A DNA stretch of 64,000 nt from a virus, in the IMG/VR virus record IMGVR_UViG_3300036770_005778, positions 1-64,000 of that record; one strand, written 5' to 3'. Shown piece after piece: positions 4,669 through 19,672 of the stretch. The notes beneath the pieces were generated by a model. That model saw only the letters and a program-made list of their open reading frames with translations. It did not search any database and had not been told where the DNA came from. A program made the translations under genes and the position numbers. Position 1 is the first letter of the stretch. Each line of letters opens with the position of its first letter.

Positions 4669-4753
4669 GCGACCGTGGTGAAATAGGTAGACACAAGAGA
4701 CTTAAAATCTCTCGACTTCGGTCATGCCGGTTCGATTCCGGCCGGTCGCACCA
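4669..4753 (+). tRNA. tRNA-Leu(TAA)
   Basis: GCGACCG...CGGTCGC-A-CCA, loop CTTAAAA, long variable arm. Confidence 0.93.
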
Positions 4754-4797: not shown

Positions 4798-4976
4798 GGG
4801 TCAGTAGGCGCTGACTTTCCGCTGCGGAGAAGATCACGTGTCGCGAACAGTTGGTAAGCACTGACTAGGAGGGGCAGTGCCTAGCGTGTGGCATTTTGGC
4901 AACAGGTGATCTTTTGGTAGACAATTAGGCAGTCTGGGTGCATAATACTAGTATGATGAAGCAGACGGAGCGGACA

Positions 4977-5300: not shown

Positions 5301-5301
5301 C

Positions 5302-5469
5302 ATGATCGACTTAGGTGAATTTGATGCACGGGCTACAATCCGGGCCAGTGCCGAGGAGCAGGACTCAGTGTTCGCCCGGCATCGGGCCAGAGTCCAGGCC
5401 TTGATGCTTGACAAAAGACCTGAATGGGCATACAATAGAGACTTAGTTAAACAAAAGGAGCGAAGATGA
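5302..5469 (+). CDS. hypothetical protein (55 aa)
   Basis: Manual ORF MIDLGEFDARAT..., GGAG upstream. Confidence 0.45.
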   Translation: MIDLGEFDARATIRASAEEQDSVFARHRARVQALMLDKRPEWAYNRDLVKQKERR

Positions 5470-5717
5470 AAGCACTAAACGATTACGTAGAAGGACGCAA
5501 CCGTATCCGCGCACTGTTCAAGCAACGGCCCTTGAGCCTAGACAGTGCCAAGGATCGGCAGCAACTGGCCGACGACATCTCCTGCTCGCTGAGCCCGGAG
5601 AACTTGACCTGCGACGGTGAGATTCCTAGGTCGGTGGTAGAGAAGAAGTACCGGATGCTGACCCAGGTGCGGGGGCAACTCCTGCGCATGGACCCTGCGG
5701 TTTCATTCTACGAATAG
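5466..5717 (+). CDS. conserved phage early protein
   Basis: LSPENLTCDGE motif; own promoter and RBS. Confidence 0.8.
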   Translation: MKALNDYVEGRNRIRALFKQRPLSLDSAKDRQQLADDISCSLSPENLTCDGEIPRSVVEKKYRMLTQVRGQLLRMDPAVSFYE

Positions 5718-5725
5718 GGGGCTGT

Positions 5726-5857
5726 ATGCAACGAGGAACTATCTGCGTCTTGCGCTGGGCTTGGATCGACGGAGTATGCGAAGAGTTGATCATGCCCTTG
5801 AACGATCAGTGGCAGTACCGAGAGTGGTCGGGTTGTTTTAGCTATCTAGGAGATTGA
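5726..5857 (+). CDS. hypothetical protein (43 aa)
   Basis: Manual ORF filling the gap. Confidence 0.4.
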   Translation: MQRGTICVLRWAWIDGVCEELIMPLNDQWQYREWSGCFSYLGD

Positions 5858-5858
5858 T

Positions 5859-6332
5859 ATGGAAACGGTAACATTACGCGGTGAGGACTTCAAGATCATC
5901 CACAACACCCTCTGCGATCTCAGGAACTTGGTGAGTCGTATGGAACGCAGCATGATCAAGGTCGACGAGTTCGATCGCATCATAGAGGGCTTCCAAATGG
6001 GGCTAGCAGATGCCTACGAGCAGGACGGTAGTGCCTTTGATCGCAAGACGGACTACTACAACCAGTTCCGTGAGGACAACGGGCTCCGGGCCATCTGGTC
6101 GATCTTCGAACTTGAAGAGCACGGGTTCCTGTTCAATCATCCCTGGGAGGGTGCCTCAATCCTGGTATACGGGCGAATCACAGTGAAGATCCAGGGTCCA
6201 ACCTGGGCAGACCTGTATCGTGCCGCTGACCTAGCCATAGAAGAGAGTGGTGACGATCACCATATCTTCATCGAGGGTTTTGGCAAATATGCCACAGACA
6301 ACTCCATGCTGGAGTTGACAACTGGCAGTTGA
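5859..6332 (+). CDS. hypothetical early protein
   Basis: AGGAG RBS; GDDHHIFIEGF motif. Confidence 0.75.
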   Translation: METVTLRGEDFKIIHNTLCDLRNLVSRMERSMIKVDEFDRIIEGFQMGLADAYEQDGSAFDRKTDYYNQFREDNGLRAIWSIFELEEHGFLFNHPWEGASILVYGRITVKIQGPTWADLYRAADLAIEESGDDHHIFIEGFGKYATDNSMLELTTGS

Positions 6333-6373
6333 GATCGTATAATAGAGACTTAGTTAACTGAAAGGAGCGCGAA

Positions 6374-6571
6374 ATGAACAAAGTGTATATCGTAGCAGGC
6401 GACAACGGTCTGGGCAACTCGGGCAATGTCGTGTTGGGTCTGTACCCCACGCAGGCTTTGGCTGAGAAGCGGGTAGAACAAGCCCGAGGAGTAGAAGCAG
6501 AATACGTCTACTTTGATGTGGTAGAAGTTGGCGCTGAGGGGGCCGATTGCCGCGTGGCAGTAGAAGGTTGA
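6374..6571 (+). CDS. hypothetical early protein
   Basis: Own promoter and GGAGCG RBS. Confidence 0.75.
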   Translation: MNKVYIVAGDNGLGNSGNVVLGLYPTQALAEKRVEQARGVEAEYVYFDVVEVGAEGADCRVAVEG

Positions 6572-6626
6572 CAATTGGGCAGTTTGGGCATACAATAGAG
6601 ACTTAGTTAACAACAAGGAGCGAGCA

Positions 6627-7034
6627 ATGGGTACACGATCACGAGTGGCCGTCATGCACGGCGACGTCTGCAAGTCAGTCTACTGCCACTACGACGGCTA
6701 TCTGGACTACACGGGCAGGATCCTGCAGGAACACTACGACAGCACACGGGCCAATCTCTTGGTGTCCATGGGTGATAACTCGGGCGTCAAAGAGACCGTA
6801 GAGGAGATGAACTTCTACAAGGACCGTGGTGAGGATGACGTTGACTTCCGTGTAGCCCACTCCTTCGAGGAGTTCCTGGAGCAGGTAGATCGTTGTTGCG
6901 GCGAATACTACTATGTGATGCGAGACGGCGTTTGGTACGCAGGGTGCCTCTACGAAACGGCTGGCTTGATCAAGAACGGGCTGGTTCCTTTGGCTGAGGC
7001 ATTGCAGGCCCTTGCAGTAGCAGAGGACGAATAA
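6627..7034 (+). CDS. conserved phage early protein
   Basis: MGTRS...VYCHYDGY...EYYY motif; own promoter. Confidence 0.8.
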   Translation: MGTRSRVAVMHGDVCKSVYCHYDGYLDYTGRILQEHYDSTRANLLVSMGDNSGVKETVEEMNFYKDRGEDDVDFRVAHSFEEFLEQVDRCCGEYYYVMRDGVWYAGCLYETAGLIKNGLVPLAEALQALAVAEDE

Positions 7035-7119
7035 CCCACCCTGTTGTAGGGTTTCTGGGCTTGACAAAAGAGCCCAGAGGCAGTACAATAGAGACTTAGT
7101 TAACAACAAGGAGCGAACT

Positions 7120-7359
7120 ATGCGGGACCACCCAAACATGTCGTATTGCATGTGCAACAATACGGAAGCCGCACTCAACCAGATCATGGACGCCATGGAC
7201 GAGCAGGGCGACGTAGACTTTGTAAAAGATTTGAGCATGGACGAACTACGCTCGTTCAACGAGATCGCGTTCATCGCTCGCCAATTCGCACAGAGGGCAG
7301 AGCGTGCCGTAGATCAAGTGATCAACGATCGGGTCGACGAAGTGCTTGACAAAGAGTGA
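7120..7359 (+). CDS. hypothetical early protein
   Basis: NMSYCM.NNT motif; own promoter. Confidence 0.75.
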   Translation: MRDHPNMSYCMCNNTEAALNQIMDAMDEQGDVDFVKDLSMDELRSFNEIAFIARQFAQRAERAVDQVINDRVDEVLDKE

Positions 7360-7403
7360 GTTTGGCCGTACAATAAAGACTTAGTTAACAAATAGGAGCG
7401 ACT

Positions 7404-8498
7404 ATGTATATCACATTCACAGAGGGCTGGTACAATATCAAGGGTCAGCCCACTAACGTTGGTGGACTCACTTTCAAACTAGTTGAGGACTACAAAGTAG
7501 CCAAGACTGGTGAGGGCTATGTTACAGTCGAAGGTGGTAGCCAGCCCGGCTTCCCTGATCGTAGCATCCGCATCAAATGCCGTCAGGGTGCCTACAATGT
7601 CGCAGGCAGTGCCAAACCCATCCCACAAGGAGTAGCAATGCTGACAGCATTGAAGAGCAAGAAAGGTGAGACTGTAACGGACTTCACCCAGGTCAAGGTC
7701 GAAGACTCGGCTGTAGCACACGAGACTGACGAAGAGATCATCGAGCGGACTCGCATGCGTTTCCAGATCCTCAAGGACATGACGCAGGCAGTCAAAGGCG
7801 GTGATGTACGTGCTATGATCGTCACAGGCCCTCCAGGCGTGGGCAAGTCGTTTGGCGTCGAAGAAGTACTTGCCAAAGACGACCTGTTCGACCTGATGGG
7901 TCAGCGCAAGCCCAAGTACGAGATCGTCAAAGGTGCTATGAGTGCCATCGGACTCTACTCCAAACTGTACAAATACAGTGACCCGAAGAGCATCTTGGTG
8001 TTCGACGACTGCGACAGCATCCTGCTGGACGATGTGGCGCTGAACATCTTGAAGGCTGCTTTGGATTCCAGCAAGAAGCGTACTATCTCGTGGAACACTG
8101 ACAGCCGTCTGCTCCGTTCAGAAGGAGTGCCTGACAAGTTCGACTTCAAGGGTGGTGCTATCTTCATCACCAACTTGAAGTTTGAGAACGTGCGTTCAAA
8201 GAAACTACAAGAGCACTTGGCTGCTTTGGAGAGCCGCTGTCACTATATCGATCTGCGCATGGACACGGATCGAGAGAAGATGCTCCGTATCAAGCAGATC
8301 GTCAAGGACGGTATGTTGGACAGTTACGAGTTAGAAGACTTCGCCAAAGATGAGGTCGTGAACTTCATCGACGATCATCGTGGCGTCATGCGCGAACTGA
8401 GCCTGCGTACTGTGCTGAAAGTAGCAGATCTGCGCAAGAGTTTCCCTGCCAATTGGCAGAACATGGCTAAGGTTACTGTCATGAAGGGAGCCTACTGA
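7404..8498 (+). CDS. AAA+ ATPase with N-terminal extension
   Basis: Walker A GPPGVGKS, Walker B LVFDD, ITN sensor, SR arginine finger. Confidence 0.85.
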   Translation: MYITFTEGWYNIKGQPTNVGGLTFKLVEDYKVAKTGEGYVTVEGGSQPGFPDRSIRIKCRQGAYNVAGSAKPIPQGVAMLTALKSKKGETVTDFTQVKVEDSAVAHETDEEIIERTRMRFQILKDMTQAVKGGDVRAMIVTGPPGVGKSFGVEEVLAKDDLFDLMGQRKPKYEIVKGAMSAIGLYSKLYKYSDPKSILVFDDCDSILLDDVALNILKAALDSSKKRTISWNTDSRLLRSEGVPDKFDFKGGAIFITNLKFENVRSKKLQEHLAALESRCHYIDLRMDTDREKMLRIKQIVKDGMLDSYELEDFAKDEVVNFIDDHRGVMRELSLRTVLKVADLRKSFPANWQNMAKVTVMKGAY

Positions 8499-8689
8499 TG
8501 GGCTCTTTCATGAAAGTGGGTGGGATCGTGGCACTCATCCTGTTCCTGATCCTCGTAGGGCCTCTGTTAACTATTTGGGCCCTGAACACCCTGTTCCCCG
8601 TGTTGGCTATCCCCTACACGGTTTGGACATGGTTTGCCGTGGTGATCTTAGCGGCGGCAGTTCGAGCAAACGTTTCAGTCAAACGGTAA
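8498..8689 (+). CDS. small membrane protein
   Basis: Two hydrophobic helices; translationally coupled. Confidence 0.7.
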   Translation: MGSFMKVGGIVALILFLILVGPLLTIWALNTLFPVLAIPYTVWTWFAVVILAAAVRANVSVKR

Positions 8690-8786
8690 GACTGAGGCTT
8701 GCGATAGTTTCGAAAGATGCTATAATTATTGAACGCTGAATAAAAGTAATCAGCTATTTTTAACTTAACTTAAAGGAAACACACAC

Positions 8787-9059
8787 ATGAAGTTCATTTC
8801 TAAAGACACCAAGACTTTCAAGGTCTTCAATGCTCTGTACAACGGTGAGCGTCTCACCCAATCGCAGGCAGCCAAGCGTTTCGGCGTAAAGAACCTCAGC
8901 GCTGAAGTCAGCCGTATCCGTTCTAATGGTTACGCTGTCTACACTCGCAACCGTACCGCTGGCAACAATGTCACGGTCACTGAGTACGAGATGGGCAAGC
9001 CCAGCCGTGAGATCGTTGCTCTCGGCTACAAGGCCAAGGCCATGGGCATCACCCTGTAA
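8787..9059 (+). CDS. winged-helix DNA-binding protein
   Basis: LTQSQAAKRFGVKNLSAEVSRIRSNGYAV HTH pattern, basic. Confidence 0.7.
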   Translation: MKFISKDTKTFKVFNALYNGERLTQSQAAKRFGVKNLSAEVSRIRSNGYAVYTRNRTAGNNVTVTEYEMGKPSREIVALGYKAKAMGITL

Positions 9060-9063
9060 GGTT

Positions 9064-9103
9064 TCAAACACCCAAGCCGATTCGCTCCCGGGGCGGGGTT
9101 TGA
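9064..9103 (+). ncRNA. candidate 3'-UTR hairpin RNA with anti-RBS loop (copy 1)
   Basis: Stem TCAAAC.CCC...CCG / CGG...GGG.GTTTGA enclosing ATTCGCTCC, upstream of a terminator. Confidence 0.5.
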
Positions 9104-9134
9104 GGGCTGTGGCAGAAATGTCACAGCCCTTTTT
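9103..9134 (+). terminator. intrinsic terminator
   Basis: AGGGCTGTGGCA-GAAA-TGTCACAGCCCT + T-tract. Confidence 0.8.
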
Positions 9135-9212
9135 CTTTCTGGCACTCCAAACCGGTTGACAATTGGGCGGCCCGGCTATATAATAGAGATAATGGATAAC
9201 AAGGAGCGAACC

Positions 9213-9845
9213 GTGGAATTCACAGCAGATCAAGTTTGGGCCTATGCTGTCACAGCAGATCGCATCAACGGTGGCTATGTGAAAATGGATCAGTGGAGCA
9301 CTGATGGCCAGTGCGTGATCAAGCGGGCCAACAAGATGATGGTCAAAGAGTGGCTCCGCGAGAACTACTGCGGTGAGGACACCGAAGCGGATTGGGAGAC
9401 TGGCCGCAGGTTCCGCCAGCATTTCAACTCTTACACCTTCTTGGCTATCCAGGGCAAACTCAACGACTTCCAGCGGCAGGCTCTGAAGATCGCACAGATG
9501 GACCGGTTCACGGGCAAGAATATGCTAGAGTTCTCGATCATCTCGTGCCTGCCCGATGTGGCCCGTAGAGATCAAGCCCAGAACAAGTTCAAGCAGGATC
9601 TATATGCTTCCGAACCCATCCAGGGTGCCGAGGGAGAAAAGATCTCGGGCTACTTCACAGTAGAGCAATGCCGGTTCAACCCCAACTACAATAAATTCAG
9701 GATCCAGGGTCGTATGGGCGAATCGTTCGTGGACTTTTGGTTCGGGCGGGAACTGTTAGTAGGCGCTAACTTACCCATCAAGGGCAAGATCAAGCGGCTG
9801 CGTGGCGATAAAACCACACAGTTGAATTTCGTTAGAGTAGGTTGA
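9213..9845 (+). CDS. conserved phage protein, possible C-terminal OB-fold
   Basis: GTG start after GGAGCGA; ends KTTQLNFVRVG. Confidence 0.7.
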   Translation: MEFTADQVWAYAVTADRINGGYVKMDQWSTDGQCVIKRANKMMVKEWLRENYCGEDTEADWETGRRFRQHFNSYTFLAIQGKLNDFQRQALKIAQMDRFTGKNMLEFSIISCLPDVARRDQAQNKFKQDLYASEPIQGAEGEKISGYFTVEQCRFNPNYNKFRIQGRMGESFVDFWFGRELLVGANLPIKGKIKRLRGDKTTQLNFVRVG

Positions 9846-9918
9846 CAATTACAGGGTTTGGCCTTATAATTATGATACTGGGAAAGCAATTCGTAGTTTA
9901 ACTTTTTAGCGAGGTCTT

Positions 9919-11004
9919 ATGTCAAAGCAAACTGATATTTCCGTCCGCCAAGTTGGACCAAAGGGTGCCAAGAAGGCGATCCGTAAGGCGATCAAAGTTC
10001 GCCGTCCTACTTTCCTGTGGGGCCCTCCTGGAATTGGTAAATCCGACATCGTCAAGCAGATTGGCGATGAACTCGATCGCGAAGTCATCGACGTGCGATT
10101 GGCCCTTTGGGAGCCCACAGACATCAAGGGTATCCCTTACTACAATTCCGATCAAGGCAGAATGGTCTGGGCACCTCCAAGCGAGCTGCCTACGGACCCA
10201 GAGTCCACGGCGATCATCTTCTTGGACGAGTTGAACTCCGCTCCTCCAGCCGTACAGGCTGCGGCCTACCAGTTGATCCTTAACCGCCGGGTAGGCACCT
10301 ACGAACTGCCCAAGGGCGTTGACATCGTTGCCGCTGGTAACCGTGAAGGCGATCGTGGCGTGACCTATCGTATGCCTGCTCCGTTGGCTAACCGCTTCGT
10401 CCACTTGGAGATGAAGGTAGACTTCGATGACTTCCAGGACTGGGCTACGCTCAACAAGGTGCATCCAGACGTGGTTGGTTATGTTGGTTTCGCCAAGCAG
10501 GACCTCTACGACTTCGATCCTAAGAGTGCCTCTAAGGCGTTCGCTACTCCTCGTTCTTGGGTGTTCGTCAGCGATTTGCTAGACGATGACGACACTGACA
10601 CCGATACGCTGGCTACCCTTATCGCAGGCGCCATCGGTGACGGGCTCGCCAACAAGTTCATGGCTCACCGTAAGATCGCAGGTAAACTGCCCAAAGCAGA
10701 TGACATTCTCGATGGCAAGGTCAAGGACCTGCAGATCAAGGAGGTGTCAGCCATGTATTCGTTGACGGTGAGTCTCTGCTACGAACTCAAGGACCGTGCT
10801 GAGAAGAAGGCCAAGGGCTGGGATGCTATGGCAGATAACTTCTTCTCCTACATGATGACGAACTTCCCAACGGAGTTGGTGGTTATGGGTGCCAAGACTG
10901 CACTGACCAACTACAACTTGCCCTTGGACGCTAGTAAGATGAAGTCCTTCGACGAGTTCCACAAGCGGTTCGGCAAGTATGTTTTGCAAGCGATGGAGAA
11001 CTAA
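9919..11004 (+). CDS. MoxR-type AAA+ ATPase
   Basis: GPPGIGKS, IFLDELN, AAGN, LANRF, TPRSW. Confidence 0.9.
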   Translation: MSKQTDISVRQVGPKGAKKAIRKAIKVRRPTFLWGPPGIGKSDIVKQIGDELDREVIDVRLALWEPTDIKGIPYYNSDQGRMVWAPPSELPTDPESTAIIFLDELNSAPPAVQAAAYQLILNRRVGTYELPKGVDIVAAGNREGDRGVTYRMPAPLANRFVHLEMKVDFDDFQDWATLNKVHPDVVGYVGFAKQDLYDFDPKSASKAFATPRSWVFVSDLLDDDDTDTDTLATLIAGAIGDGLANKFMAHRKIAGKLPKADDILDGKVKDLQIKEVSAMYSLTVSLCYELKDRAEKKAKGWDAMADNFFSYMMTNFPTELVVMGAKTALTNYNLPLDASKMKSFDEFHKRFGKYVLQAMEN

Positions 11005-11020
11005 GACCTCGCCCATCGCA

Positions 11021-11058
11021 GGGCGGGGGCTTGCCCAGAGTTCCCGCCCACCTTTTTT
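11021..11058 (+). terminator. intrinsic terminator
   Basis: GGGCGGG...CCCGCCC followed by T-tract. Confidence 0.6.
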
Positions 11059-11116
11059 GGTTGACAAATCAGCGACACGACATTATAATAGATACATACA
11101 GTAAGGAGAGCGAGCA

Positions 11117-12331
11117 ATGTCAAATTCAGCGATCATCGAAAAGTTAACCACAGCCCGAGTAGGCCTGCTACTCAAAGCACCGTTCTTCGGCAACATGGCC
11201 ACCCGCATGAAACTGATCGAATCAGATGACTGGTGCCCGACTGCGGCCACAGACGGACGCAACTTCTTCTACTCTACCAAGTTCGTAGAGAAACTGTCAG
11301 TCAAGAAACTAGAGTTCCTGTTCGCACACGAGATCTGCCACGCTATCTTCGATCACTTTGGTCGCGTGGGTTCGCGTGATCGTACCCTGTCTAACATCGC
11401 GCAGGACTATGCCGTCAACCAGATCCTCGTAGATGAGCGCATCGGTGAGAAGATCACTGAAGTGCAGATCTGCTACGATCCCAAGTATCGCGGCATGGCC
11501 TGGGAAGAGATCTACGATGAACTCTGGGAAAAAGCAGAGAAGATCAGCCTGCCCGAACTGATGAAGCAACTGGGCGATCTGCTTGACGAGCACATCAAAG
11601 AAGAAGAGGGTGCCGGTGCTGGCGACAAAGACAAAGATGGCAAAGGCAAGCCCAGCCTTACCAAAGAAGAAGCAGAGCAGATCCGCCAGGAGATCAAGAA
11701 TGCTATGATCCAAAGTGCCGCGGCCAGTGGTGCAGGTAAAGTGCCCGCAGGTATCCAGCGTATGATCAAGAACTTGACCGAGCCCAAGATGGATTGGCGT
11801 CAACTTGTTCGTCAGGAGATCCAAAGCATCGTCCGCAATGACTATTCTTTTACCCGCCCTAATCGTAAGAGTATGCACTCAGGTGCCATCCTTCCGGGCA
11901 TGAAAGAGGCTACTACTATCGATGTGGCTATTGGCATCGATATGAGCGGAAGCATCGGCGATGAGGATGCCAAAGTGTTCTTGAGCGAAGTCAAAGGTAT
12001 CATGGATCAGTACGAGGACTTCAAGATCAATATCTGGTGCTTTGACACAGAGATCTATAACGCACAAGAGATCACGCACGATAACAGTGAGGACCTCGTT
12101 GACTACGAGCCCATGGGCGGTGGTGGCACGGACTTTGAAGTCAACTGGACATTCATGCAAGATAATGGTATCCAGCCCAAGAAGTTCATCATGTTCACAG
12201 ACGGCTACCCTTGCGGTTCGTGGGGTGACGAAGACTACTGCGATACCATATTCGTTGTCAAAGGCAACGACAAGGCGCAGGCTCCGTTTGGACAGACTGT
12301 GATCTACGAGCGGGAGACAGCGGCGGCCTAA
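11117..12331 (+). CDS. DUF2201-type metallopeptidase + VWA domain protein
   Basis: TAATDG, HEICH (HExxH), MIDAS DMSGS, GGGT, FTDG. Confidence 0.88.
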   Translation: MSNSAIIEKLTTARVGLLLKAPFFGNMATRMKLIESDDWCPTAATDGRNFFYSTKFVEKLSVKKLEFLFAHEICHAIFDHFGRVGSRDRTLSNIAQDYAVNQILVDERIGEKITEVQICYDPKYRGMAWEEIYDELWEKAEKISLPELMKQLGDLLDEHIKEEEGAGAGDKDKDGKGKPSLTKEEAEQIRQEIKNAMIQSAAASGAGKVPAGIQRMIKNLTEPKMDWRQLVRQEIQSIVRNDYSFTRPNRKSMHSGAILPGMKEATTIDVAIGIDMSGSIGDEDAKVFLSEVKGIMDQYEDFKINIWCFDTEIYNAQEITHDNSEDLVDYEPMGGGGTDFEVNWTFMQDNGIQPKKFIMFTDGYPCGSWGDEDYCDTIFVVKGNDKAQAPFGQTVIYERETAAA

Positions 12332-12451
12332 GTGCCGGGGGCTGTGGCTTTTTTGCAACAGGCCCCGCTGTTATACGTGTGCGTACAGAGTTGACAAAAG
12401 ACTTATCCGATCGTATAATATAGATACTGAGAAACAACTTAGGAGCGAGCA

Positions 12452-12721
12452 ATGAATGATCTAAGAAACATCCTAGTAGACATCCGCAACGGTGATTTCA
12501 ACAATGATGATCTTAACCTGATCATCGAGGCCGTCAAGTTCAAGCGAGCACAGAATGCCCGCAAGGCTGCGAATACTCTTAGGATCGGTGAGCAGGTCAC
12601 GTTCAACGGTAAGAACGGTCCTGTGGTAGGACGTCTTGAGCAGATCAAGATCAAAAAGGCCATCGTGGTCAGTGGTATGACCCGTTGGAATGTTCCACTG
12701 GCAATGTTGGAGGCTGTATAA
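12452..12721 (+). CDS. hypothetical early protein (SH3-like C-terminus)
   Basis: Own promoter/RBS; beta-rich C-terminus WNVP. Confidence 0.75.
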   Translation: MNDLRNILVDIRNGDFNNDDLNLIIEAVKFKRAQNARKAANTLRIGEQVTFNGKNGPVVGRLEQIKIKKAIVVSGMTRWNVPLAMLEAV

Positions 12722-12849
12722 TGCAACTACTGATTGGGTTTATCCTAGGAGTCGTGGTGTCTACGATCGGATTCTCGGGCGTGGCCTATTACGCCGATCA
12801 AGGCGTCAACAAGATCAAAGAAATCACACAAGAGGCGACTAACAAATGA
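12721..12849 (+). CDS. small membrane protein (42 aa)
   Basis: Manual: MQLLIGFILGVVVSTIGFSGVA... Confidence 0.6.
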   Translation: MQLLIGFILGVVVSTIGFSGVAYYADQGVNKIKEITQEATNK

Positions 12850-13025
12850 GCATCATGAAAGACCTAGCCTATGATATCGAACAGATGTGGATCGAAGGAT
12901 ATCGTCCGATCACGATCGCAGGTCTGCTCGATTGCCACGTAGACCTAGTCTACGATTGGATCGAGTCCAACAACCTGAGTGCCGACGAGGCTTCGTATGA
13001 CCCGCACGACACCATCAACTCCTAA
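12846..13025 (+). CDS. small acidic HTH-like protein (59 aa)
   Basis: Manual: MSIMKDLAYDIEQMWIEGYRPITIAGLLDCHVDLVYDWI... Confidence 0.6.
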   Translation: MSIMKDLAYDIEQMWIEGYRPITIAGLLDCHVDLVYDWIESNNLSADEASYDPHDTINS

Positions 13026-13105
13026 CCGCGATCCTGCGCCGGCAGACGACTCATACGAACTGCCCCCGCATACAGATTAAGAATTGTTCTTGTTGCGCTC
13101 CCTTT

Positions 13106-13133
13106 GACCCTGCTCGCATCAGGGTCTTTTTTT
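13106..13133 (+). terminator. intrinsic terminator
   Basis: GACCCTG-loop-CAGGGTC + T7. Confidence 0.8.
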
Positions 13134-13191
13134 GGTTGACAATTGGGTGCTCTGGCTGTAGAATAGAGATACTGGATAACAAGGAGCGGCT

Positions 13192-13392
13192 ATGGGCTAC
13201 ACGGTATTCGAGCGGGATGTGAACTACGGACCACGTAACGGACTGGAAGGACCCTTCCACTATCCAAACGGGCAGGTCCTGTACTATGATCCCAAAGCGG
13301 GCGAGTACTGGGATCCAACCACGGACTTCTACGTGCCCAACGAAGATGTGGCTCGTTTGCAACAGACGATCTTCGACTCAATCCGTGGTTGA
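13192..13392 (+). CDS. conserved phage early protein
   Basis: GLEGPF..LYYDPKAGEYWDPTTDFY motif. Confidence 0.8.
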   Translation: MGYTVFERDVNYGPRNGLEGPFHYPNGQVLYYDPKAGEYWDPTTDFYVPNEDVARLQQTIFDSIRG

Positions 13393-13451
13393 CAATTGGA
13401 CGATTTGGCTGTAGAATTATGATACTGGGAAAACAAAACAAGGAGCGAAAG

Positions 13452-13799
13452 ATGACTGCAACATTCGATACCGTAAAAGTGCAAATGGCCCACGCATTGG
13501 CCCTGCATGAAGCCAAACACGCCGCGTATGGCTTCGCCCATAAGCACATGGGTGGCAAGGATGGCGGACCCTGCGGATTTGCCTGGGTCAACATCTACAA
13601 GGTCAGGAAGAACTCCAAACTGGGAAAGGCCTTGGAGGCAGTAGGGTTCCGTAAATCCTACGATGGCAGTTTCCAACTCTGGAACAAGTGGTGGCCAGGG
13701 CAGAGCGTGGATGCGGCCGATGCTGGTGCGTGTGCCTATGCAGAGACCATGCGCAGAGAATTAGGTCTGGACTTCTACGCAGGTAGCAGGCTGGACTAA
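13452..13799 (+). CDS. conserved phage early protein
   Basis: CGFAWV...SRLD motif. Confidence 0.8.
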   Translation: MTATFDTVKVQMAHALALHEAKHAAYGFAHKHMGGKDGGPCGFAWVNIYKVRKNSKLGKALEAVGFRKSYDGSFQLWNKWWPGQSVDAADAGACAYAETMRRELGLDFYAGSRLD

Positions 13800-13920
13800 G
13801 TCCCAGGTTGATCGCTGGGCCAGGGTGGGCGAGCAACCCCCGCCCTGTTAGAACAAATTGGTTGACAATTGGACGGTCTGGGCTTATACTGTAGGTATAG
13901 TGAAAGACAAGGAGCGCGAA

Positions 13921-14169
13921 ATGCAGACAGAAAAAGAAAAGGTAGTAGGCGCCCTGCGGGGTTGGGAATTCATCCGTGAGCGCCACGGTAGCCTGTTTGA
14001 TCGCGGCAGTGCCGATTCCTACTACGGTCGGGCACCTGATCCGCACTACGGTGGCGTTGGTGGCGACAGTGGGATCCGTGTCAAGGTTATGTACACAGAA
14101 GCCGTGGCAGAATACATGGCGGGCTACGAGGACAACGAGAAGTTCGGTCACAAGAAGGACTACGCCTAA
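13921..14169 (+). CDS. conserved phage early protein
   Basis: HGSLFDRGSADSYYGR...EYMAGY motif. Confidence 0.8.
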   Translation: MQTEKEKVVGALRGWEFIRERHGSLFDRGSADSYYGRAPDPHYGGVGGDSGIRVKVMYTEAVAEYMAGYEDNEKFGHKKDYA

Positions 14170-14516
14170 TGGAAGCGGTCCGTGAGATCACTGCTTGGGA
14201 TGTAGAGTACCGACAGCCCAATCACATCTACCTGCTAGACGGGGACCGTGTTAAGGCCTACATCAAGTGGGGCGAAGGTCCGGTAGAATGGCTGTCAGGA
14301 AAGGTCAAGATTGATCGCCGTGGCCGTAAGTTCGAGAAAGCAGACATTGGTCTGTTCGAAGTTAAAGAAGCAAAGGATCCTGTGATCTTGGAAGTGCCTG
14401 GTAGCAAGGGTGCGACCTACTATGTGAACACAGAAACTGGGACCTGCACCTGCCCTGGATTCACTTTCCGTGGTGCCTGTAAACACACAAAGGAGTTAGA
14501 ACTTGAAGACTACTGA
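14169..14516 (+). CDS. SWIM zinc-finger protein
   Basis: YYV...CTCPGF.FRG.CKH. Confidence 0.8.
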   Translation: MEAVREITAWDVEYRQPNHIYLLDGDRVKAYIKWGEGPVEWLSGKVKIDRRGRKFEKADIGLFEVKEAKDPVILEVPGSKGATYYVNTETGTCTCPGFTFRGACKHTKELELEDY

Positions 14517-14531
14517 TCAAGAATACGCGAG

Positions 14532-14867
14532 ATGGGTTTGGACTACTACGGGCCGTATGTTCCTACAGGCCGTGGCGATCTACGGTGGGCTGTTAGGTGC
14601 CTATTGGGTGCTAGTAGGATGATCGACCAGTTCCTTTGGTTCTGCCTGCCTGAGGAGGACAAGAGGTTCTTAGAACCATACAGATCCCCTAAGACCGAGA
14701 CCAGCCTGTTCAAATGGATACCTGTGGCAGAAAAGCCACGAGCACGGGATCTCTGCTTGAAACTGGGGCTGCGTGTCCGGGTAGTCTACAGAGGGCCTAG
14801 GAAGCGGTGGGCAGCTCACACGGCCCAAGAAGATGCTACCCATTTCACGGTCTATCCAATCGGTTGA
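14532..14867 (+). CDS. hypothetical protein
   Basis: Fills the gap; RVVYRGPR motif; start uncertain. Confidence 0.55.
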   Translation: MGLDYYGPYVPTGRGDLRWAVRCLLGASRMIDQFLWFCLPEEDKRFLEPYRSPKTETSLFKWIPVAEKPRARDLCLKLGLRVRVVYRGPRKRWAAHTAQEDATHFTVYPIG

Positions 14868-14922
14868 CAATTGGCGGGTTTGGCCGTATAATGTAAGTAT
14901 AGTGAAAAACAAGGAGCGAAAA

Positions 14923-15189
14923 ATGACATCAGCACAATCCAAATTCAACGCATATCTAGACGAATGCCGTGAAACCCGAGAGGCTTTGGGTGCCTTTGAG
15001 AAGGCAGTCCACGAAAAGTATGATGGTTCGGGCTACGCCTATATCGCAGGCTACATGATGACCCAACTACAGGATGCTATCACCCACTTGCCCAAAGCCA
15101 AACGGGCAGAGTTCCGTGAGACTTTCCTCCGTGCAGCCAAGAAGTTCGAGCAAGAGAACCTCATGAAGATGATCAAGGAGACTGCATGA
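14923..15189 (+). CDS. hypothetical early protein
   Basis: Own promoter and GGAGCGA RBS. Confidence 0.75.
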   Translation: MTSAQSKFNAYLDECRETREALGAFEKAVHEKYDGSGYAYIAGYMMTQLQDAITHLPKAKRAEFRETFLRAAKKFEQENLMKMIKETA

Positions 15190-15374
15190 TCACCAACATC
15201 AACTATCTGAAGACAGCCATAGGAGTCCTCGAACAAGGGCAGACTCCTATGACGGAAGCCAAGATCCTTAAGATCATGCGGGATATCTGCGAGATGAACA
15301 TCCAGCGGATCGAGCAGAATTTGGTTGACAAAGTAGAAGATCGGTTGTATAATAAAGATACAGTAAACGAATAG
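15186..15374 (+). CDS. hypothetical protein
   Basis: ATGA overlap, AAGGAG RBS. Confidence 0.6.
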   Translation: MITNINYLKTAIGVLEQGQTPMTEAKILKIMRDICEMNIQRIEQNLVDKVEDRLYNKDTVNE

Positions 15375-15383
15375 GAGCGAACT

Positions 15384-15500
15384 ATGGAATTTGAAGATCT
15401 GTTTGATGATGTAGACGAAACTGTGATAGATGAAGATCTAGACATCGACGAAGCAGTAGATATCCTCTACGATGCGATCTATGGAGACGACAATGCCTAA
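15384..15500 (+). CDS. very acidic 38-aa peptide
   Basis: Manual: MEFEDLFDDVDETVIDEDLDIDEAVDILYDAIYGDDNA; own promoter and RBS. Confidence 0.7.
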   Translation: MEFEDLFDDVDETVIDEDLDIDEAVDILYDAIYGDDNA

Positions 15501-16116
15501 TTGGTGCTCGAATTACATTTCCGTGCGCGGTCGTAGACAAGAGGCCGTGCAGAAGTTGGCGGATGCCTTTGATGCAGGTGAATTCTGCAATGCAGTGATC
15601 CCCTGTCCAGAAGATCTACTGCGTGATGGCAGTAGCACCCACGGCGGTCCTAACGCAGATGCCTACGACCAGATCCGTGCAGAGAACAAGGCCAAACACG
15701 GCTACGACAACTGGTATGACTTCAATGTGGCCAATTGGGGAACCAAATGGGACATCACTGTCAGTTCAGAGTGCGAGCGTGACGAAGACGGATTGAGTTT
15801 CAGCGGACAGTTCGACACAGCCTGGTCGCCACCTATGGGCATCGTAGAGCGATTGACCCAGCAGGGCTACGATGTCACCCTCTACTACTACGAGCCGGGC
15901 ATGGGCTTTGTAGGCAAGTATGAGGACGGTGTAGATGACTACTATGAACTGTCAGGTTTGGACAGTTCCACCGTGGCGGCCACCATCGGTGACGAATTGG
16001 ACGACTTCTTTGGCATCTCTGAACAGATGGCCGAATACGAGTCAGAGCAGGAAGAAGAAGAGCTCACAGAATGGATCAAAGATGGCGCTGACAAGCGTGG
16101 ATTGGTCACTGTATGA
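15493..16116 (+). CDS. DUF1281-like protein
   Basis: MPNWCSN...WYD...NWGTKWD...FDTAWSPP...YYEPGMGFVG. Confidence 0.8.
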   Translation: MPNWCSNYISVRGRRQEAVQKLADAFDAGEFCNAVIPCPEDLLRDGSSTHGGPNADAYDQIRAENKAKHGYDNWYDFNVANWGTKWDITVSSECERDEDGLSFSGQFDTAWSPPMGIVERLTQQGYDVTLYYYEPGMGFVGKYEDGVDDYYELSGLDSSTVAATIGDELDDFFGISEQMAEYESEQEEEELTEWIKDGADKRGLVTV

Positions 16117-16304
16117 GAACTTACCGTTTCCAATTTGAAGTGATCTGTGCCGGCCAAGGTCGGCCCGATCTCAAGAGAGTCGAAGACATGCTGGATCTCA
16201 GCATGCAGGATCTGGTCATGGACGACGAGTTTGTCGCCGCCCTAGACGAGACGGAAGCGGTGACCATCCAGGTTACGCCGCTGTTTGGTGATACAGATGG
16301 TTGA
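16113..16304 (+). CDS. hypothetical protein
   Basis: ATGA overlap. Confidence 0.6.
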   Translation: MRTYRFQFEVICAGQGRPDLKRVEDMLDLSMQDLVMDDEFVAALDETEAVTIQVTPLFGDTDG

Positions 16305-16377
16305 CATCTGGATTGGTTGAGTATATAATTAATATACTTGGTAGTTAGTTAACGCACACACACTTAGGAGATTTAGA

Positions 16378-16692
16378 ATGGCAACTTCAAAGACTTTCGC
16401 TGTAGCAGGTGTTTCCACCCACAAAGACGGCACCAAGATCCGTTTCGCCAACGATGCGGCTCGCGTCAAGATCTTGATCAAGAACGGACACACGGACATC
16501 GAGCTGATCGACCTGCCCCGGGAGATGACCAAGGCAGAGATCGCCCAATACCTGTTCGAAACCGACTTCGCTAAAGGTCGTGTTGCGGTCATGGACGCGA
16601 TCAAGGATCTAGCCAAAAAGAACCGTGTGAAGGCAGTGCCTGAAGTAAGTAAAAGTACCACTGCCGCGAAGGCAGAGGCCGTCGCCCAGTAA
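16378..16692 (+). CDS. small basic Lys/Ala-rich protein
   Basis: KIRFAND...L.KNGHTDIELIDLP..MTK; own promoter, RBS AGGAGA. Confidence 0.8.
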   Translation: MATSKTFAVAGVSTHKDGTKIRFANDAARVKILIKNGHTDIELIDLPREMTKAEIAQYLFETDFAKGRVAVMDAIKDLAKKNRVKAVPEVSKSTTAAKAEAVAQ

Positions 16693-16719
16693 GACCGATT
16701 CGCTCCCGGTTTGGGTGAC
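16681..16719 (+). ncRNA. candidate 3'-UTR hairpin RNA with anti-RBS loop (copy 2)
   Basis: GTCGCCC....AGACCG-ATTCGCTCC-CGGTTT-GGGTGAC hairpin upstream of a terminator. Confidence 0.5.
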
Positions 16720-16723
16720 ACTT

Positions 16724-16758
16724 GGGGGGCTGCTTTAACGGGCAGCCCTCTTTTTTTT
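16724..16758 (+). terminator. intrinsic terminator
   Basis: GGGGGCTGC...GCAGCCCTC + T8. Confidence 0.8.
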
Positions 16759-16776
16759 CTTCGGAGTAAATACAAG

Positions 16777-17160
16777 ATGATCATCGAATTCCTTATAGTC
16801 TTTGCTGTGGGTTTTTGGTTGGGCAGCCTCTTCCGGGGTGCCTGGATGGCTCTGAGTTTCCGTGAAATCCTCAAGGATCTAGGAGTCACTGATCAGCAAC
16901 TGCGTAACCTAGCAAAGAAGAATGGCCTAGATCTCGATGATCCAGAACCCACTGCTCGAAATGAGAAAGACGATCTTCCGGTGCTAGAAGTCCGCATCGA
17001 ACAGCATCCAGAAGGCCTGTTCGCATATCGCAAAGAGGACAACTTCTTTATCGCACAGGGCTCAGACCGCACCACACTGATGGAGAACCTGGTCAACAAC
17101 CTCACCAACGTCAGGGTCGTGGTAGCCAAAGAAGACGGGGCTGATCTGATCAACCCCTAG
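16777..17160 (+). CDS. membrane-anchored hypothetical protein
   Basis: N-terminal TM; TAAATA 4 nt upstream of ATG. Confidence 0.7.
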   Translation: MIIEFLIVFAVGFWLGSLFRGAWMALSFREILKDLGVTDQQLRNLAKKNGLDLDDPEPTARNEKDDLPVLEVRIEQHPEGLFAYRKEDNFFIAQGSDRTTLMENLVNNLTNVRVVVAKEDGADLINP

Positions 17161-17284
17161 GCAGTTAGTAAGCACTTACTTAATCCCGACTACGTTACTA
17201 CACTATTATAAAAAACACTTGCAAATTGGGCTGTGTTGCGCTATAATGTTTTTGTGTTAGTTAATAAGCAAATAGGAGCGTAAT

Positions 17285-17470
17285 ATGCAACAAGTAAACA
17301 ATGTTTTAGTAGCACTGCAAACAGCACACGCAACAGTGCGCATGGCTAAAGACTACGAGCAAGAAGAAGCAGTAAACGACACAGCGTTTGCAATTGTGGA
17401 ACTACTGCGCACACTGCACGACAACGATTTTGACATTGCAGATTTAGCACAGCAAGCGTTAGAGATGTAG
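17285..17470 (+). CDS. hypothetical early protein (island gene 1; no Pro or Ser)
   Basis: Own promoter 17219 and GGAGCG RBS. Confidence 0.8.
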   Translation: MQQVNNVLVALQTAHATVRMAKDYEQEEAVNDTAFAIVELLRTLHDNDFDIADLAQQALEM

Positions 17471-17562
17471 CATAAACGCAACAGCACTACACAGCACTTG
17501 CAATTTGGGCTGTGTAGTGCTATAATGTTTTTGTGTTAGTTAATAAGCAAATAGGAGCGTGT

Positions 17563-17895
17563 ATGTTAAAAATTACAAACACTACAGTAGAGCGTGATGA
17601 AGAAGAAGGCATGACTTACACGAGCTATGACGTAGAAGGCTTTGCTACGCTAGACGGTACGAGCATTTGGGACTACGACTATGCTAAGGAAGGCACACAG
17701 GTTAAAGTTACGCACATAGGCGTGACGGAGTACGACGACGAAGATTACGGCAAGAGCATTTATGTGACGCACGACAAAGGCTGGGAGATTTACACAGACA
17801 GAGGCTTTGAGCAGAGCATTAGTAGTGTGCTGGGCTTTGACGTTACGTTTACAGAGCAAGGCATGCAAGACGACGAACTTGCGAGCATGGAGTAA
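17563..17895 (+). CDS. acidic hypothetical early protein (island gene 2; no Pro)
   Basis: Own promoter 17498; IYTD.GFE...FTEQGMQ motif. Confidence 0.85.
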   Translation: MLKITNTTVERDEEEGMTYTSYDVEGFATLDGTSIWDYDYAKEGTQVKVTHIGVTEYDDEDYGKSIYVTHDKGWEIYTDRGFEQSISSVLGFDVTFTEQGMQDDELASME

Positions 17896-17973
17896 CTTTT
17901 ACGCAACACTACGCACTTGACATTTTGGGTGCGTAGTGCTATAATGCTTACACACTAAACAAACGGAGCGAAT

Positions 17974-18291
17974 ATGCAACTAGCAACTACAAAACAAACA
18001 CGTAAAATTGTAAGCAACTACTTTAACGGTATTAGTTTTAGCGGTAACAGTTGGACAGACAAGTGTGCAGGCGACGAGACTATGCGGCGTGTGGCGTTTA
18101 AGATTTGCGGCGGTAGCATGGAAGCAACTAGGCTAGAAACTATACGCAAAGACTTGCAGGCGCTGTTTATGCTGGCAGGCTTTGCTAACGAAGTTAAAAC
18201 AACGGACAGCACGAGCAAGCGTGTAGGGCTTTTGGCATACTGTAGGGACGACAGCGGTTGCTACGTGCGTGTTAAAGCACGGGCAAGTTAG
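17974..18291 (+). CDS. basic hypothetical early protein (island gene 3; no Pro)
   Basis: Own promoter 17917, RBS GGAGCGAAT. Confidence 0.8.
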   Translation: MQLATTKQTRKIVSNYFNGISFSGNSWTDKCAGDETMRRVAFKICGGSMEATRLETIRKDLQALFMLAGFANEVKTTDSTSKRVGLLAYCRDDSGCYVRVKARAS

Positions 18292-18406
18292 CACTAACTA
18301 ACAGGGTGTTGCGTTTTTGCAACACCCCCCGGCCCCGCTGCTAGCCGGTTGACAATTGGCGGGTTTGGCTGTAGAATGTAGTTACAGTGAAACAAAGGAG
18401 CGAACT

Positions 18407-18520
18407 ATGTTGAAACTCATCGGAATTGCGGCAGTAGTGTACGTGGGTTGGATCACCGGCATCATCCAAGCAGCACTTCTAATCACAGCCGCAGGGCTGA
18501 CTACTGTGGCGGGGCTGTGA
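18407..18520 (+). CDS. small hydrophobic protein (37 aa)
   Basis: Manual: MLKLIGIAAVVYVGWITGIIQAALL...; own promoter. Confidence 0.65.
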   Translation: MLKLIGIAAVVYVGWITGIIQAALLITAAGLTTVAGL

Positions 18521-18702
18521 TGTTTGGATTCAATCATCGAGTAAGCCGCCCAGCGACCAACGAACTCATCGACCTAGCAGAAGGCGGAGTCATCGACTGG
18601 GAGTCATTGGCCCGAGATCTGTTGGGCTGGATGAGCGAGCACGAAGTCGCAGAGTTCGCCCGACGCAATGACTACATCCGGGAGGAGGACGAGGATGCCT
18701 AA
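18520..18702 (+). CDS. hypothetical protein
   Basis: TGATG coupling; WMSE motif. Confidence 0.65.
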   Translation: MFGFNHRVSRPATNELIDLAEGGVIDWESLARDLLGWMSEHEVAEFARRNDYIREEDEDA

Positions 18703-18922
18703 GTATGTGTTCGAGCGCACCAGCCTAGTCACAGAGACTTTCACCGTGACGGCTGACGACGAGGATCAAGCCCTGGACCTAGTCCGGGACGGTGGGCCTA
18801 CAGTCAAAGTTGGTCCTATGCAGTGGCAGGATTGGTACGATGAGGAATACAGCCTAGATTCAGTAGAAGATGAACTGGTAACGTTCCTAAACTCAAAGGT
18901 GAAAGAATGCGCTATTTCCTGA
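18695..18922 (+). CDS. hypothetical acidic protein
   Basis: GAGG RBS, MPKYVFER... Confidence 0.65.
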   Translation: MPKYVFERTSLVTETFTVTADDEDQALDLVRDGGPTVKVGPMQWQDWYDEEYSLDSVEDELVTFLNSKVKECAIS

Positions 18923-19260
18923 TATCGTTTGACTGCAACGGCCTGGAGTGCCTGCAGGACATCTCAGAGTTCCATCCCGACAACTGGGACAAGAACCAAC
19001 TCATGGGCATAATGATGGGCAAGGCCTACAAGAAGGCGCCCATCCATGCCCAGATCTCGCAGATGGTCATGCGGGCCAAATTCAACCCACAGCGCCACTA
19101 CGAGATCTACATACAGCAGGCCGATGACGATATCTCAGCCGCAGATTTCGCCAGTGTGTTTAACGACGATCCGCAGTTCTGGGCGGATTACGTCCGTGAG
19201 CATCATAGTGTAAAGATATACAGTGATCGCATCAAGAAGGGATCTAGGGTCATCGAGTGA
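18907..19260 (+). CDS. conserved phage hypothetical protein
   Basis: DCNGLE...RAKFNPQRHYEIY motif. Confidence 0.7.
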   Translation: MRYFLISFDCNGLECLQDISEFHPDNWDKNQLMGIMMGKAYKKAPIHAQISQMVMRAKFNPQRHYEIYIQQADDDISAADFASVFNDDPQFWADYVREHHSVKIYSDRIKKGSRVIE

Positions 19261-19329
19261 TTTTGGTTGACAACTCCTTGTTTTGGACCTATAATAGAAA
19301 CATAGGATAACAAAACAAGGAGCGACAAA

Positions 19330-19605
19330 ATGTACTTGGTTTATTCCGTGATAGCAGAACGTGATCACTACGAGGGCGATCGTGTGTATCCTTTGGCAGT
19401 GTTCGCAACCCGTGAAGAAGCAGTGGATTACGGTGTGGGCTACCTGTTCGATGACGATGGCGATGACCCTCGCATAGGCGTTATGGATTCCGTGCGTGTG
19501 GTAGAGTTCGACGGTGCCCTCCCTGCGGTGGACCTGTATGCTTACCGCGATGGTCTGGTAGGGCGTGGCGCTGGTGAGTGCGTGATGCGTTTGGCTGTGG
19601 CCTAA
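19330..19605 (+). CDS. hypothetical early protein
   Basis: Own promoter and RBS. Confidence 0.7.
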   Translation: MYLVYSVIAERDHYEGDRVYPLAVFATREEAVDYGVGYLFDDDGDDPRIGVMDSVRVVEFDGALPAVDLYAYRDGLVGRGAGECVMRLAVA

Positions 19606-19672
19606 TTTGGTTGACAATTCCCTAGTTTGGCAGCATAATAACAACTGTAGCAAAACACAACAAGGAGCGAAA

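Follow-up and report, generated by a model that had tools for sequence, protein, structure and literature searches.

The early genes of an uncultured giant lake phage appear to carry, at the 3' ends of their transcripts, RNA that is complementary to the ribosome-binding sites at the 5' ends. The DNA in question (the window) is a stretch of 64,000 nucleotides (nt) that makes up the first 64 kb of a 75-kb IMG/VR record (IMGVR_UViG_3300036770_005778), itself rated 21% complete. Approximately 19 promoter-proximal leaders in the window share what we call the tag, a private extension of the Shine-Dalgarno sequence into the spacer (AAGGAG-CGAA), and the complement of that tag, the anti-tag, is found beside intrinsic terminators. 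Tag and anti-tag changed together in related phages, which makes it very probable that early protein synthesis is controlled through base pairing of the two. Comparison of the sequences strongly supports pairing between the two as RNA and indicates that their complementarity is very probably under selection. On balance, we think it somewhat more probable than not that the early units are built such that RNA at the 3' end complements the ribosome site or sites at the 5' end and that pairing shuts off early translation.

Hairpins that display the anti-tag precede early terminators

The early block of the window lies on the + strand between 4 and 20 kb and contains approximately 21 near-perfect sigma-70-type promoters (TTGACA, 17 nt, TATAAT), each of which is followed by a leader of 22 to 28 nt and a small gene. 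A 15-mer, CCGATTCGCTCCCGG, occurs at 9077-9091 and again at 16695-16709, both on the + strand (0.02 expected from shuffles), and a search allowing two or fewer mismatches found no further copies. The first copy begins 17 nt past the stop codon of a winged helix-turn-helix (wHTH) gene, and the second begins 2 nt past the stop codon of a gene encoding a 104-amino-acid (104-aa) protein. In the predicted fold of either copy, a longer hairpin carries the 9-nt loop AUUCGCUCC at its tip, and the two hairpins have unlike outer stems (Table 1). Hairpin 2 is predicted only if the fold includes the last codons of the open reading frame (ORF), as a shorter fold misses it, and the stop codon (16690-16692) lies inside its internal loop. 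A first-pass annotation of the window had described a 15-mer that occurs twice after stop codons, with a common 9-nt loop, differing outer stems, and a terminator next to each, and both the search and the folds bore that description out in full.

Five + strand terminators were found in the early block, and an anti-ribosome-site element precedes four of them. One such element is a third, shorter anti-tag that is single stranded and sits directly 5' of the terminator at 13106-13126; its core, CGCUCCC, is kept 5' of the homologous terminator in three relatives (L286, L287, and L307). Between 4790 and 9102, and again between 13126 and 16724, the search gave no terminator on the + strand, and therefore transcripts from five to six tagged promoters should end in each hairpin. 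A + strand TCGCTCC at 26822 was taken as a chance occurrence because it lies within a minus-strand gene. We also note that GGCACUCC (9141-9148 in the window) is conserved in many relatives (L006, L014, L034, L050, L057, and others), in the interval from terminator 1 to the following -35 box. This motif includes CUCC but is past the U run, and it may serve as a promoter-upstream site or in read-through.

Early leaders share a tagged ribosome site

GGAGCG is present in 19 leaders, from 4967 to 19664, as the first-pass annotation had counted. The longer form GGAGCGAA occurs 11 times where 1.6 are expected; nine of the occurrences are on the + strand, all of them in leaders, and the remaining two are the hairpins themselves read on the opposite strand. 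The loop is, as claimed at first pass, the reverse complement of the early ribosome site, and the 9/9 match at 17965-17973 is real. The distance from tag to start codon is fixed (5 to 7 nt) whereas the distance from tag to -10 box is variable (18 to 25 nt), and thus the tag belongs to translation and not to the promoter. Operon-internal genes have ribosome sites other than the tag.

Duplexes between loop and leader reach -10 kcal/mol or lower for 20 of the 44 early-region leaders, compared with a mean of 1.0 leader when the loops were shuffled. Those 20 (-10 to -14.4 kcal/mol) are the 19 leaders with GGAGCG and the leader at 11117. The duplex with the loop (-13.3 kcal/mol) is stronger than that with a generic 16S tail (-7.9 kcal/mol), which may differ from the tail of the host. 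The predicted cost of opening is 0 to 0.3 kcal/mol for the loop and 1.2 to 4.4 kcal/mol for the target. The two genes that carry the hairpins, wHTH and 104-aa, had been said to lack the tag and indeed do: their leaders have ACACAC runs, and the duplexes with the loop amount to only -2.3 and -5.2 kcal/mol, respectively.

Two resemblances, an occurrence of the tag GGAGCGAAC in the 16S rRNA of some phyla and a likeness of the loop to the complement of the tRNA T arm, were set aside, as they found no support and leave the covariation unexplained. As a separate observation, the promoter at 19267 has between its -35 and -10 boxes the spacer sequence ACTCCTTGTT (19273-19282), the complement of a common leader stretch, AACAAGGAG. 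Matches of at least 7 nt to this spacer are found in 12 early ribosome sites; they may be coincidental, or the spacer may act as an additional anti-leader element in RNA that reads through.

The loop is conserved on variable stems

Relatives of the window phage reach 280 to 380 kb and stem from metagenome-derived contigs in IMG/VR. A megablast search of the region against isolated phages gave no match, and the closest isolate, judged from one protein, is Sinorhizobium phage Phosso (44% identity). The "Moraphages" (PMC12619734) were set aside as relatives because they are a separate lineage tied to Bacteroidota. The exact 15-mer is matched at least 126 times in IMG/VR contigs, in at least 120 stretches, and at least 95 of the matches have a T run within 80 nt. 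Matches lacking a nearby T run are chance occurrences, mostly inside unrelated contigs.

Hairpin 1 is kept as CCGAUUCGCUCCCGG behind wHTH homologs in 43 of 79 contigs (29 distinct sequences), and its outer stems covary. The loop of hairpin 2 is kept 4 to 8 nt past the stop codon of 104-aa homologs in 42 of 67 (32 distinct sequences); its outer stems are compensated by two-sided changes, such as GTTACCGC/GCGGTAAC versus GTCGCCCA/TGGGTGAC, and its inner stems vary among CCG/CGG, UCG/CGA, and CAG/CUG. The loop is the same in more than 90 related contigs, whereas its stems show covariation or have been exchanged outright; a loop variant, ACUCGCUCC, also occurs. Display of the loop was assessed in 72 sequences (70 distinct relatives and the two window copies), in which the loop core had a mean unpaired probability of 0.80, compared to 0.38 with shuffled flanks. 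MAFFT and RNAalifold misregistered the variable outer stems when applied to long flanks, and per-sequence folding with a fixed-register alignment was used instead. The inner-stem covariation score was 0.312 versus 0.155, was reached by none of 500 shuffles, and dropped when the register was slid.

The arrangement of the modules also varies. Some relatives have two to three tandem hairpin modules where the window has single modules, and more distant records have the identical 9-nt loop either on unrelated 14-bp stems that form the terminator themselves or as two in tandem. A complete relative, G004, has the same layout as the window, with one early block containing 14 tagged ribosome sites and two loops.

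Two further patterns were seen at these positions. In 11 AT-rich relatives (L017, L019-L021, L035, L036, L038, L052, L055, L056, and L063), hairpin 1 is replaced by a conserved perfect palindrome, GGTTAGGCCTAACC, which lies after the winged-helix gene and before a plain terminator. In several contigs recovered through the 15-mer (L150, L163, L179-L181, L191, L200, L213, L214, and L218), GGGGTCGGGG followed by a TATAAAATAAAAA-like sequence recurs downstream of terminator-type anti-tag hairpins and resembles a second class of promoter in these phages, distinct from the sigma-70 type.

Tag and anti-tag change in step

Lineages that use GGAGCG have the anti-tag CGCUCC. Lineages that use GAGGGCA(A) have 5 to 13 tagged sites per locus and two to three copies of GCCCUC after the homologous ATPase gene; one copy, as UGCCCUC, occupies the loop of a hairpin of 14 bp. 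Finally, a lineage with AGCGAGGUA leaders (an AGCGAGG tag) has CCUCGCU after the homologous ATPase gene. A matrix of tags against anti-tags from ten lineages is essentially diagonal. The first-pass annotation had named covariation of loop and ribosome site in related phages as a way to check its proposal, and such covariation is seen, in three tag/anti-tag states. At the ATPase stop codon of four contigs from sister lineages (L362, L363, L364, and L366), a conserved GCCCUCACGCUC(C) fuses their own anti-tag, GCCCUC, with that of the window's lineage, CGCUCC, and may be a relic or a dual-specificity element.

In the wider family, the hairpin appears to belong to the ATPase gene. In G001, G002, and G005, it lies directly 3' of the ATPase homolog, and the ATPase ribosome site and its own 3' element share a complement of 7 to 9 nt in G001, G002, G006, G007, and G009. 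Judged from these comparisons, hairpin 1 is ancestrally the 3' untranslated region (UTR) of the AAA ATPase gene, the ribosome site of which has the tag.

The MoxR-like gene has a private pair

One early unit has a pairing of its own. The ribosome site of a MoxR-like AAA gene and an element that overlaps its stop codon form an 11-bp helix (9909-9919 with 11002-11012) in the minimum-energy fold of the 1,182-nt transcript, with pair probabilities of 0.95 to 0.99. Among 30 distinct relatives, the mean perfect complement is 9.4 nt, compared to 7.8 nt for mismatched partners, and none of 2,000 permutations reached the observed match. At least seven compensated states occur among the 30, and in one of them the stop codon is changed to UGA and matched by UCUCA in the spacer. 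Natural variants of the pair include ACGAGG/CCUCGU and GUGAGG/CCUCAC. The 3' element matches one ribosome site only and thus is not a regulon signal. We conclude that the predicted MoxR pair shows the logic of 5'-3' pairing within a single gene.

Table 1. Positions of the anti-tag elements, tagged ribosome sites, and adjoining genes in the window
Feature	Position	Strand	Description
Hairpin 1	9064-9103	+	Outer stem, internal loop, inner stem CCG/CGG, and 9-nt apical loop; in the 3' UTR of the wHTH gene
Anti-tag loop 1, AUUCGCUCC	9080-9088	+	Complement of GGAGCGAAU; unpaired probability, 0.91; opening cost, 0.34 kcal/mol
Intrinsic terminator 1	9104-9138 (or 9102-9131)	+	Stem-loop and U run
Hairpin 2	16679-16721	+	Outer stem formed between the final three codons of the 104-aa ORF and sequence 3' of it
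Anti-tag loop 2, AUUCGCUCC	16698-16706	+	Unpaired probability, 0.99; opening cost, 0.01 kcal/mol
Intrinsic terminator 2	16724-16759 (or 16724-16751)	+	
Third, shorter anti-tag, UGCGCUCCC	13094-13102	+	Single stranded; complement of GGAGCG(C)
Private ribosome-site tag of the MoxR-like gene	9909-9919	+	GCGAGGUCUU and the A of AUG
Private anti-ribosome-site element	11002-11012	+	Stop codon UAA and 8 nt, GACCUCGC
Intrinsic terminator of the MoxR unit	11021-11056	+	
Tagged ribosome site, GGAGCG	4967-4972	+	
Tagged ribosome site, GGAGCGAA	5457-5464	+	Duplex with loop, -13.3 kcal/mol
Tagged ribosome site, GGAGCG(C)	6364-6369	+	
Tagged ribosome site, GGAGCGA	6617-6623	+	
Tagged ribosome site, GGAGCGAA	7110-7117	+	
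Tagged ribosome site, GGAGCGA	7395-7401	+	AAA ATPase gene
Tagged ribosome site, GGAGCGAA	9203-9210	+	
Tagged ribosome site, GGAGCGA	12442-12448	+	
Tagged ribosome site, GGAGCG	13183-13188	+	
Tagged ribosome site, GGAGCGAA	13442-13449	+	
Tagged ribosome site, GGAGCG(C)	13911-13916	+	
Tagged ribosome site, GGAGCGAA	14913-14920	+	
Tagged ribosome site, GGAGCGAA	15374-15381	+	
Tagged ribosome site, GGAGCG	17275-17280	+	
Tagged ribosome site, GGAGCG	17554-17559	+	
Tagged ribosome site, GGAGCGAAU	17965-17973	+	9/9 match to loop; duplex, -14.4 kcal/mol
Tagged ribosome site, GGAGCGAA	18397-18404	+	
Tagged ribosome site, GGAGCGA	19319-19325	+	
Tagged ribosome site, GGAGCGAA	19664-19671	+	
AAA ATPase gene	7404-8498	+	Pfam AAA_16 and AAA, both below curated cutoffs
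Winged-helix gene	8787-9059	+	Pfam HTH_39; in this clade, inserted between the ATPase unit and hairpin 1
MoxR-like AAA gene	9919-11004	+	Pfam AAA_5, AAA_3, and AAA above cutoffs; bpMoxR below cutoff
104-aa gene	16378-16692	+	3' end forms hairpin 2

Neighboring genes and features

The 104-aa protein had no match in Pfam, PHROG, or PDB folds and matched only uncharacterized phage proteins. A role as an RNA chaperone was considered and dropped, as neither a Pfam or PHROG family nor a PDB fold match supported it. Residues 4 to 38 (16387-16491) resemble in sequence one blade of cyanobacterial WD40-type repeat proteins (e.g., 2ymu; E = 6e-14 summed over repeats), and the fold, predicted with a local distance difference test score (pLDDT) of 77, had no PDB match. 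The C-terminal consensus EAV[TA][AQ] (16678-16689) is conserved in L083-L125 despite predicted disorder, and the constraint on this tail may come from the RNA outer stem of hairpin 2 instead of from the protein.

Among Rfam models, only tRNA reached the gathering score in the window, and permissive E values gave subthreshold matches only. Hairpin 2 with its terminator scored 21.6 bits (E = 0.58) against suhB/mmgR (RF00519), for which the gathering threshold is 41 bits. The early block opens with three tRNA genes (Met-CAT, Arg-TCT, and Leu-TAA; 4463-4753), and the terminator behind them has no anti-tag. The G+C content is approximately 50% over the early block (1-26000) and approximately 36 to 40% elsewhere (28000-64000), an unusually sharp split for one phage genome.

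Discussion

Two terminator-proximal hairpins are predicted to expose UUCGCUCC in an open loop of 9 nt, single-stranded CGCUCCC lies ahead of a third terminator, and the MoxR-like gene has a pair of its own. In cis, an anti-tag would pair with a tag on the same transcript, and nested promoters would share one terminator. Indeed, the tag may be common to many leaders because nested promoters share one 3' end. In trans, an anti-tag could pair with the tagged leaders of units that have none, such as that at 17.2 to 20.7 kb. In either case, the helix would cover the Shine-Dalgarno sequence and the spacer and shut out 30S subunits. The outcome would be a built-in shutoff or timer of early translation, which would set in while transcripts reach completion or stable 3' ends build up. 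Two of the anti-tags are at the stop codon or 2 nt past it, where a terminating ribosome would mask the anti-tag and couple the switch to ongoing translation.

Several observations weigh against shutoff by pairing. The loop variant ACUCGCUCC occurs in L083, L090, and L113 without a matching change in the tags of the same genomes. Covariation of the shared tag rests on three states and so on few independent events, and anti-tags do not segregate cleanly: GAGGGC lineages also retain CGCUCC beside GCCCUC, and G001 and G002 also retain CCUCGC. Moreover, a 9-nt loop that only 3 bp close leaves little steric room for an 8-bp helix, and the inner stem would have to breathe. The unit at 17.2 to 20.7 kb has seven tagged leaders and no anti-tag of its own, and thus trans action is needed, or is at least possible, for these leaders. 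Finally, the leader at 9203 mismatches the anti-tag of its own unit. The case is built from sequence and predicted folds, from which we infer pairing in vivo and the effect on translation, as well as the balance between cis and trans action and the timing.

Pairing could be real and its consequence positive, if closure of 5' and 3' ends protects the mRNA from 5'-end-dependent or 3' exonucleolytic decay or keeps the stop codon beside the ribosome site, such that terminating ribosomes open that site again and are recycled for reinitiation on a closed loop. All of the covariation fits such a role as well as it fits repression. Moreover, the MoxR helix includes both the stop codon and the A of AUG, the stop codon of hairpin 2 lies inside the structure 2 nt 5' of the anti-tag stem, and a terminating ribosome must melt exactly this helix. 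The ancestral anti-tag, however, lies 40 to 65 nt past the stop codon and is beyond the reach of a terminating ribosome. We also know of no characterized case, icaR included, in which a helix over the Shine-Dalgarno sequence is other than inhibitory. We regard a positive role as improbable, though it is the main rival to shutoff.

The first-pass annotation had proposed instead an RNA regulon: in the strict form of that proposal, the two hairpins would be released as stable 3'-UTR-derived small RNAs (sRNAs) that silence approximately 20 early mRNAs together and spare the messages that carry them. The part of that proposal that survives is the conserved, displayed loop with a complementarity under selection. 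A shared tag on 19 leaders, seven of them in a unit that lacks an anti-tag, is what strictly trans action would predict, as are the untagged leaders of the two carrier genes and their weak duplexes (-2.3 and -5.2 kcal/mol). The elements also have the customary makeup of a 3'-UTR-derived sRNA, in which a terminator that ends in a U tail comes after a conserved seed, and the two to three tandem hairpins of some relatives resemble modular anti-Shine-Dalgarno sRNAs. The sparing of carrier transcripts, however, does not hold, as the ancestral host of the hairpin is an ATPase gene with a tagged ribosome site and, with no terminator between, transcripts from the upstream tagged promoters should run into the hairpins. 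Nor does a single master sRNA accommodate the gene-private MoxR pair of ribosome site and stop codon, and neither a promoter nor a processing site that could yield a separate sRNA came to light. An icaR-like pairing inside a single transcript is no less likely than a master sRNA that acts in trans, and the strictly trans scheme seems to us unlikely.

Two other explanations do without pairing between tag and anti-tag. The hairpin might be a protein-binding RNA signal at terminators, either a stability element or a nut/boxB- or put-like antitermination site, to which the complementarity of the tag is incidental. The hairpin always lies immediately before an intrinsic terminator or is one itself, recognition of the loop by a protein would likewise keep the loop invariant while the stems vary, and the loop contains CGCUC, as does lambda boxA. 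Protein recognition leaves unexplained, however, 8 nt of complementarity in which every copy of GGAGCGAA is either a leader or a hairpin, the coswitching of tag and anti-tag in sister lineages, and the compensatory changes in the hairpin-free MoxR pair. Moreover, no Rfam family was matched at threshold, the elements do not conform to the known antitermination models (lambda nut and HK022 put), and in several lineages the hairpin is the terminator itself and so is unfit for a signal that acts before it. Covariation has largely gone against a protein signal already, and we consider it very unlikely. More improbable still is a feature of the DNA, in which tag and anti-tag are two orientations of a duplex site for a DNA-binding protein, such as the winged-helix protein, or inverted repeats that flank gene cassettes. 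The same 8-mer does occur in both orientations on duplex DNA, an 11-bp inverted repeat flanks the MoxR ORF exactly, and a winged-helix gene adjoins hairpin 1. A duplex site has no need, however, of flanking stems that covary to hold it in a single-stranded loop, and the tag keeps to the start codon rather than the promoter, as anti-tags keep to stop codons and terminators. Recombination could not make the inverted repeats evolve in concert either, given how short they are and how widely separated (1.1 kb), and thus the compensated changes imply selection on pairing.

Anti-Shine-Dalgarno RNA pairing as a class is already known. In the icaR mRNA of Staphylococcus aureus, a 3' UTR motif pairs with the ribosome site of the same mRNA (PMC3868564). 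As far as that account describes icaR, its position and logic match those of the MoxR unit in the window and of the ATPase unit in distant lineages, and both a 3' UTR motif complementary to its own Shine-Dalgarno region and compensatory changes (in MoxR and in the three lineage states) are found here. The icaR case, as it is presented there, concerns a single gene and a generic UCCCCUG, whereas most early units of the phage are involved here, the tags are private and lineage specific, and the anti-tag often lies in a hairpin loop or overlaps the stop codon. RNase III cleavage and a translation block were demonstrated for icaR in that account, whereas pairing is predicted here.

In phages, the c4 antisense RNA of P1 and P7 has complementary sequences, probably in loops, that pair around a ribosome-binding site and block translation, and a 2025 review of phage sRNAs names it as the case that acts at a ribosome-binding site (PMC12197685). 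In the terms of that review, c4 serves one operon (ant) and immunity in temperate phages, whereas approximately 19 early leaders of a lytic T4-like jumbo phage are at issue here; the c4 RNA has no sequence or Rfam relationship with the present elements. The Cuckoo, RSs0680 (CcsR), and alpha-r14 RNAs of Alphaproteobacteria have two to four adjacent hairpins with the loop CCUCCUCCC (PMC4615179). Like the hairpins here, they share a transcript with the ORF upstream and have a terminator-like hairpin on their 3' side (PMC4615179). Some of the phage relatives, too, have tandem modules, two to three in number. Their loop is a generic anti-Shine-Dalgarno sequence, however, unlike AUUCGCUCC, and with no match at an Rfam gathering score to a curated model of this family, the phage hairpins do not qualify as members. 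The family is also one of cellular RNAs, for which no private tag on a whole class of genes is described there (PMC4615179).

Gram-positive sRNAs with C-rich loops, such as RNAIII and RsaE, carry in their apical loops the seed for the Shine-Dalgarno sequences of several targets. Those seeds (UCCC) match a generic Shine-Dalgarno sequence, whereas half of the seed here (UUCG) matches a private extension in the spacer, and thus coevolution is visible. In T4, early mRNAs are silenced at their ribosome sites by the RegB endoribonuclease and the RegA translational repressor; the elements here would serve that end too, but the agents in T4 are proteins. Pfam matches to RegA or RegB were absent from the record and from two complete relatives, but control genomes were also silent, and the absence is only weakly shown. 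Hfq likewise had no match in the phage record or in three relatives, and here the controls did match. Literature searches returned no description of such a system, and a literal search of the literature for the motif returned only primers and unrelated sequences. What is new is that such pairing extends over a whole class of viral genes, that its tags are private and differ by lineage, and that one variant overlaps the stop codon.

We speculate, tentatively and with appreciable doubt, that a family of freshwater jumbo phages has a private, evolvable ribosome-site code in which early mRNAs are self-closing, the 3' end of each (a terminator hairpin loop or the region of the stop codon) pairing with its own tagged site. 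Terminating ribosomes would keep the message open, and the latch would shut when translation stops, such that a temporal program of RNA only replaces the RegA and RegB proteins of T4. Anti-Shine-Dalgarno pairing is known from single bacterial mRNAs and a few sRNA families and is undescribed as the organizing principle of a viral gene class. If shutoff by pairing is correct, it would show that a lytic phase can be timed by RNA alone, and the lineages would offer natural orthogonal pairs of ribosome sites and anti-sites for synthetic biology. Moreover, the long-debated communication between the 5' and 3' ends of bacterial mRNA would become testable, with many natural compensatory variants at hand.

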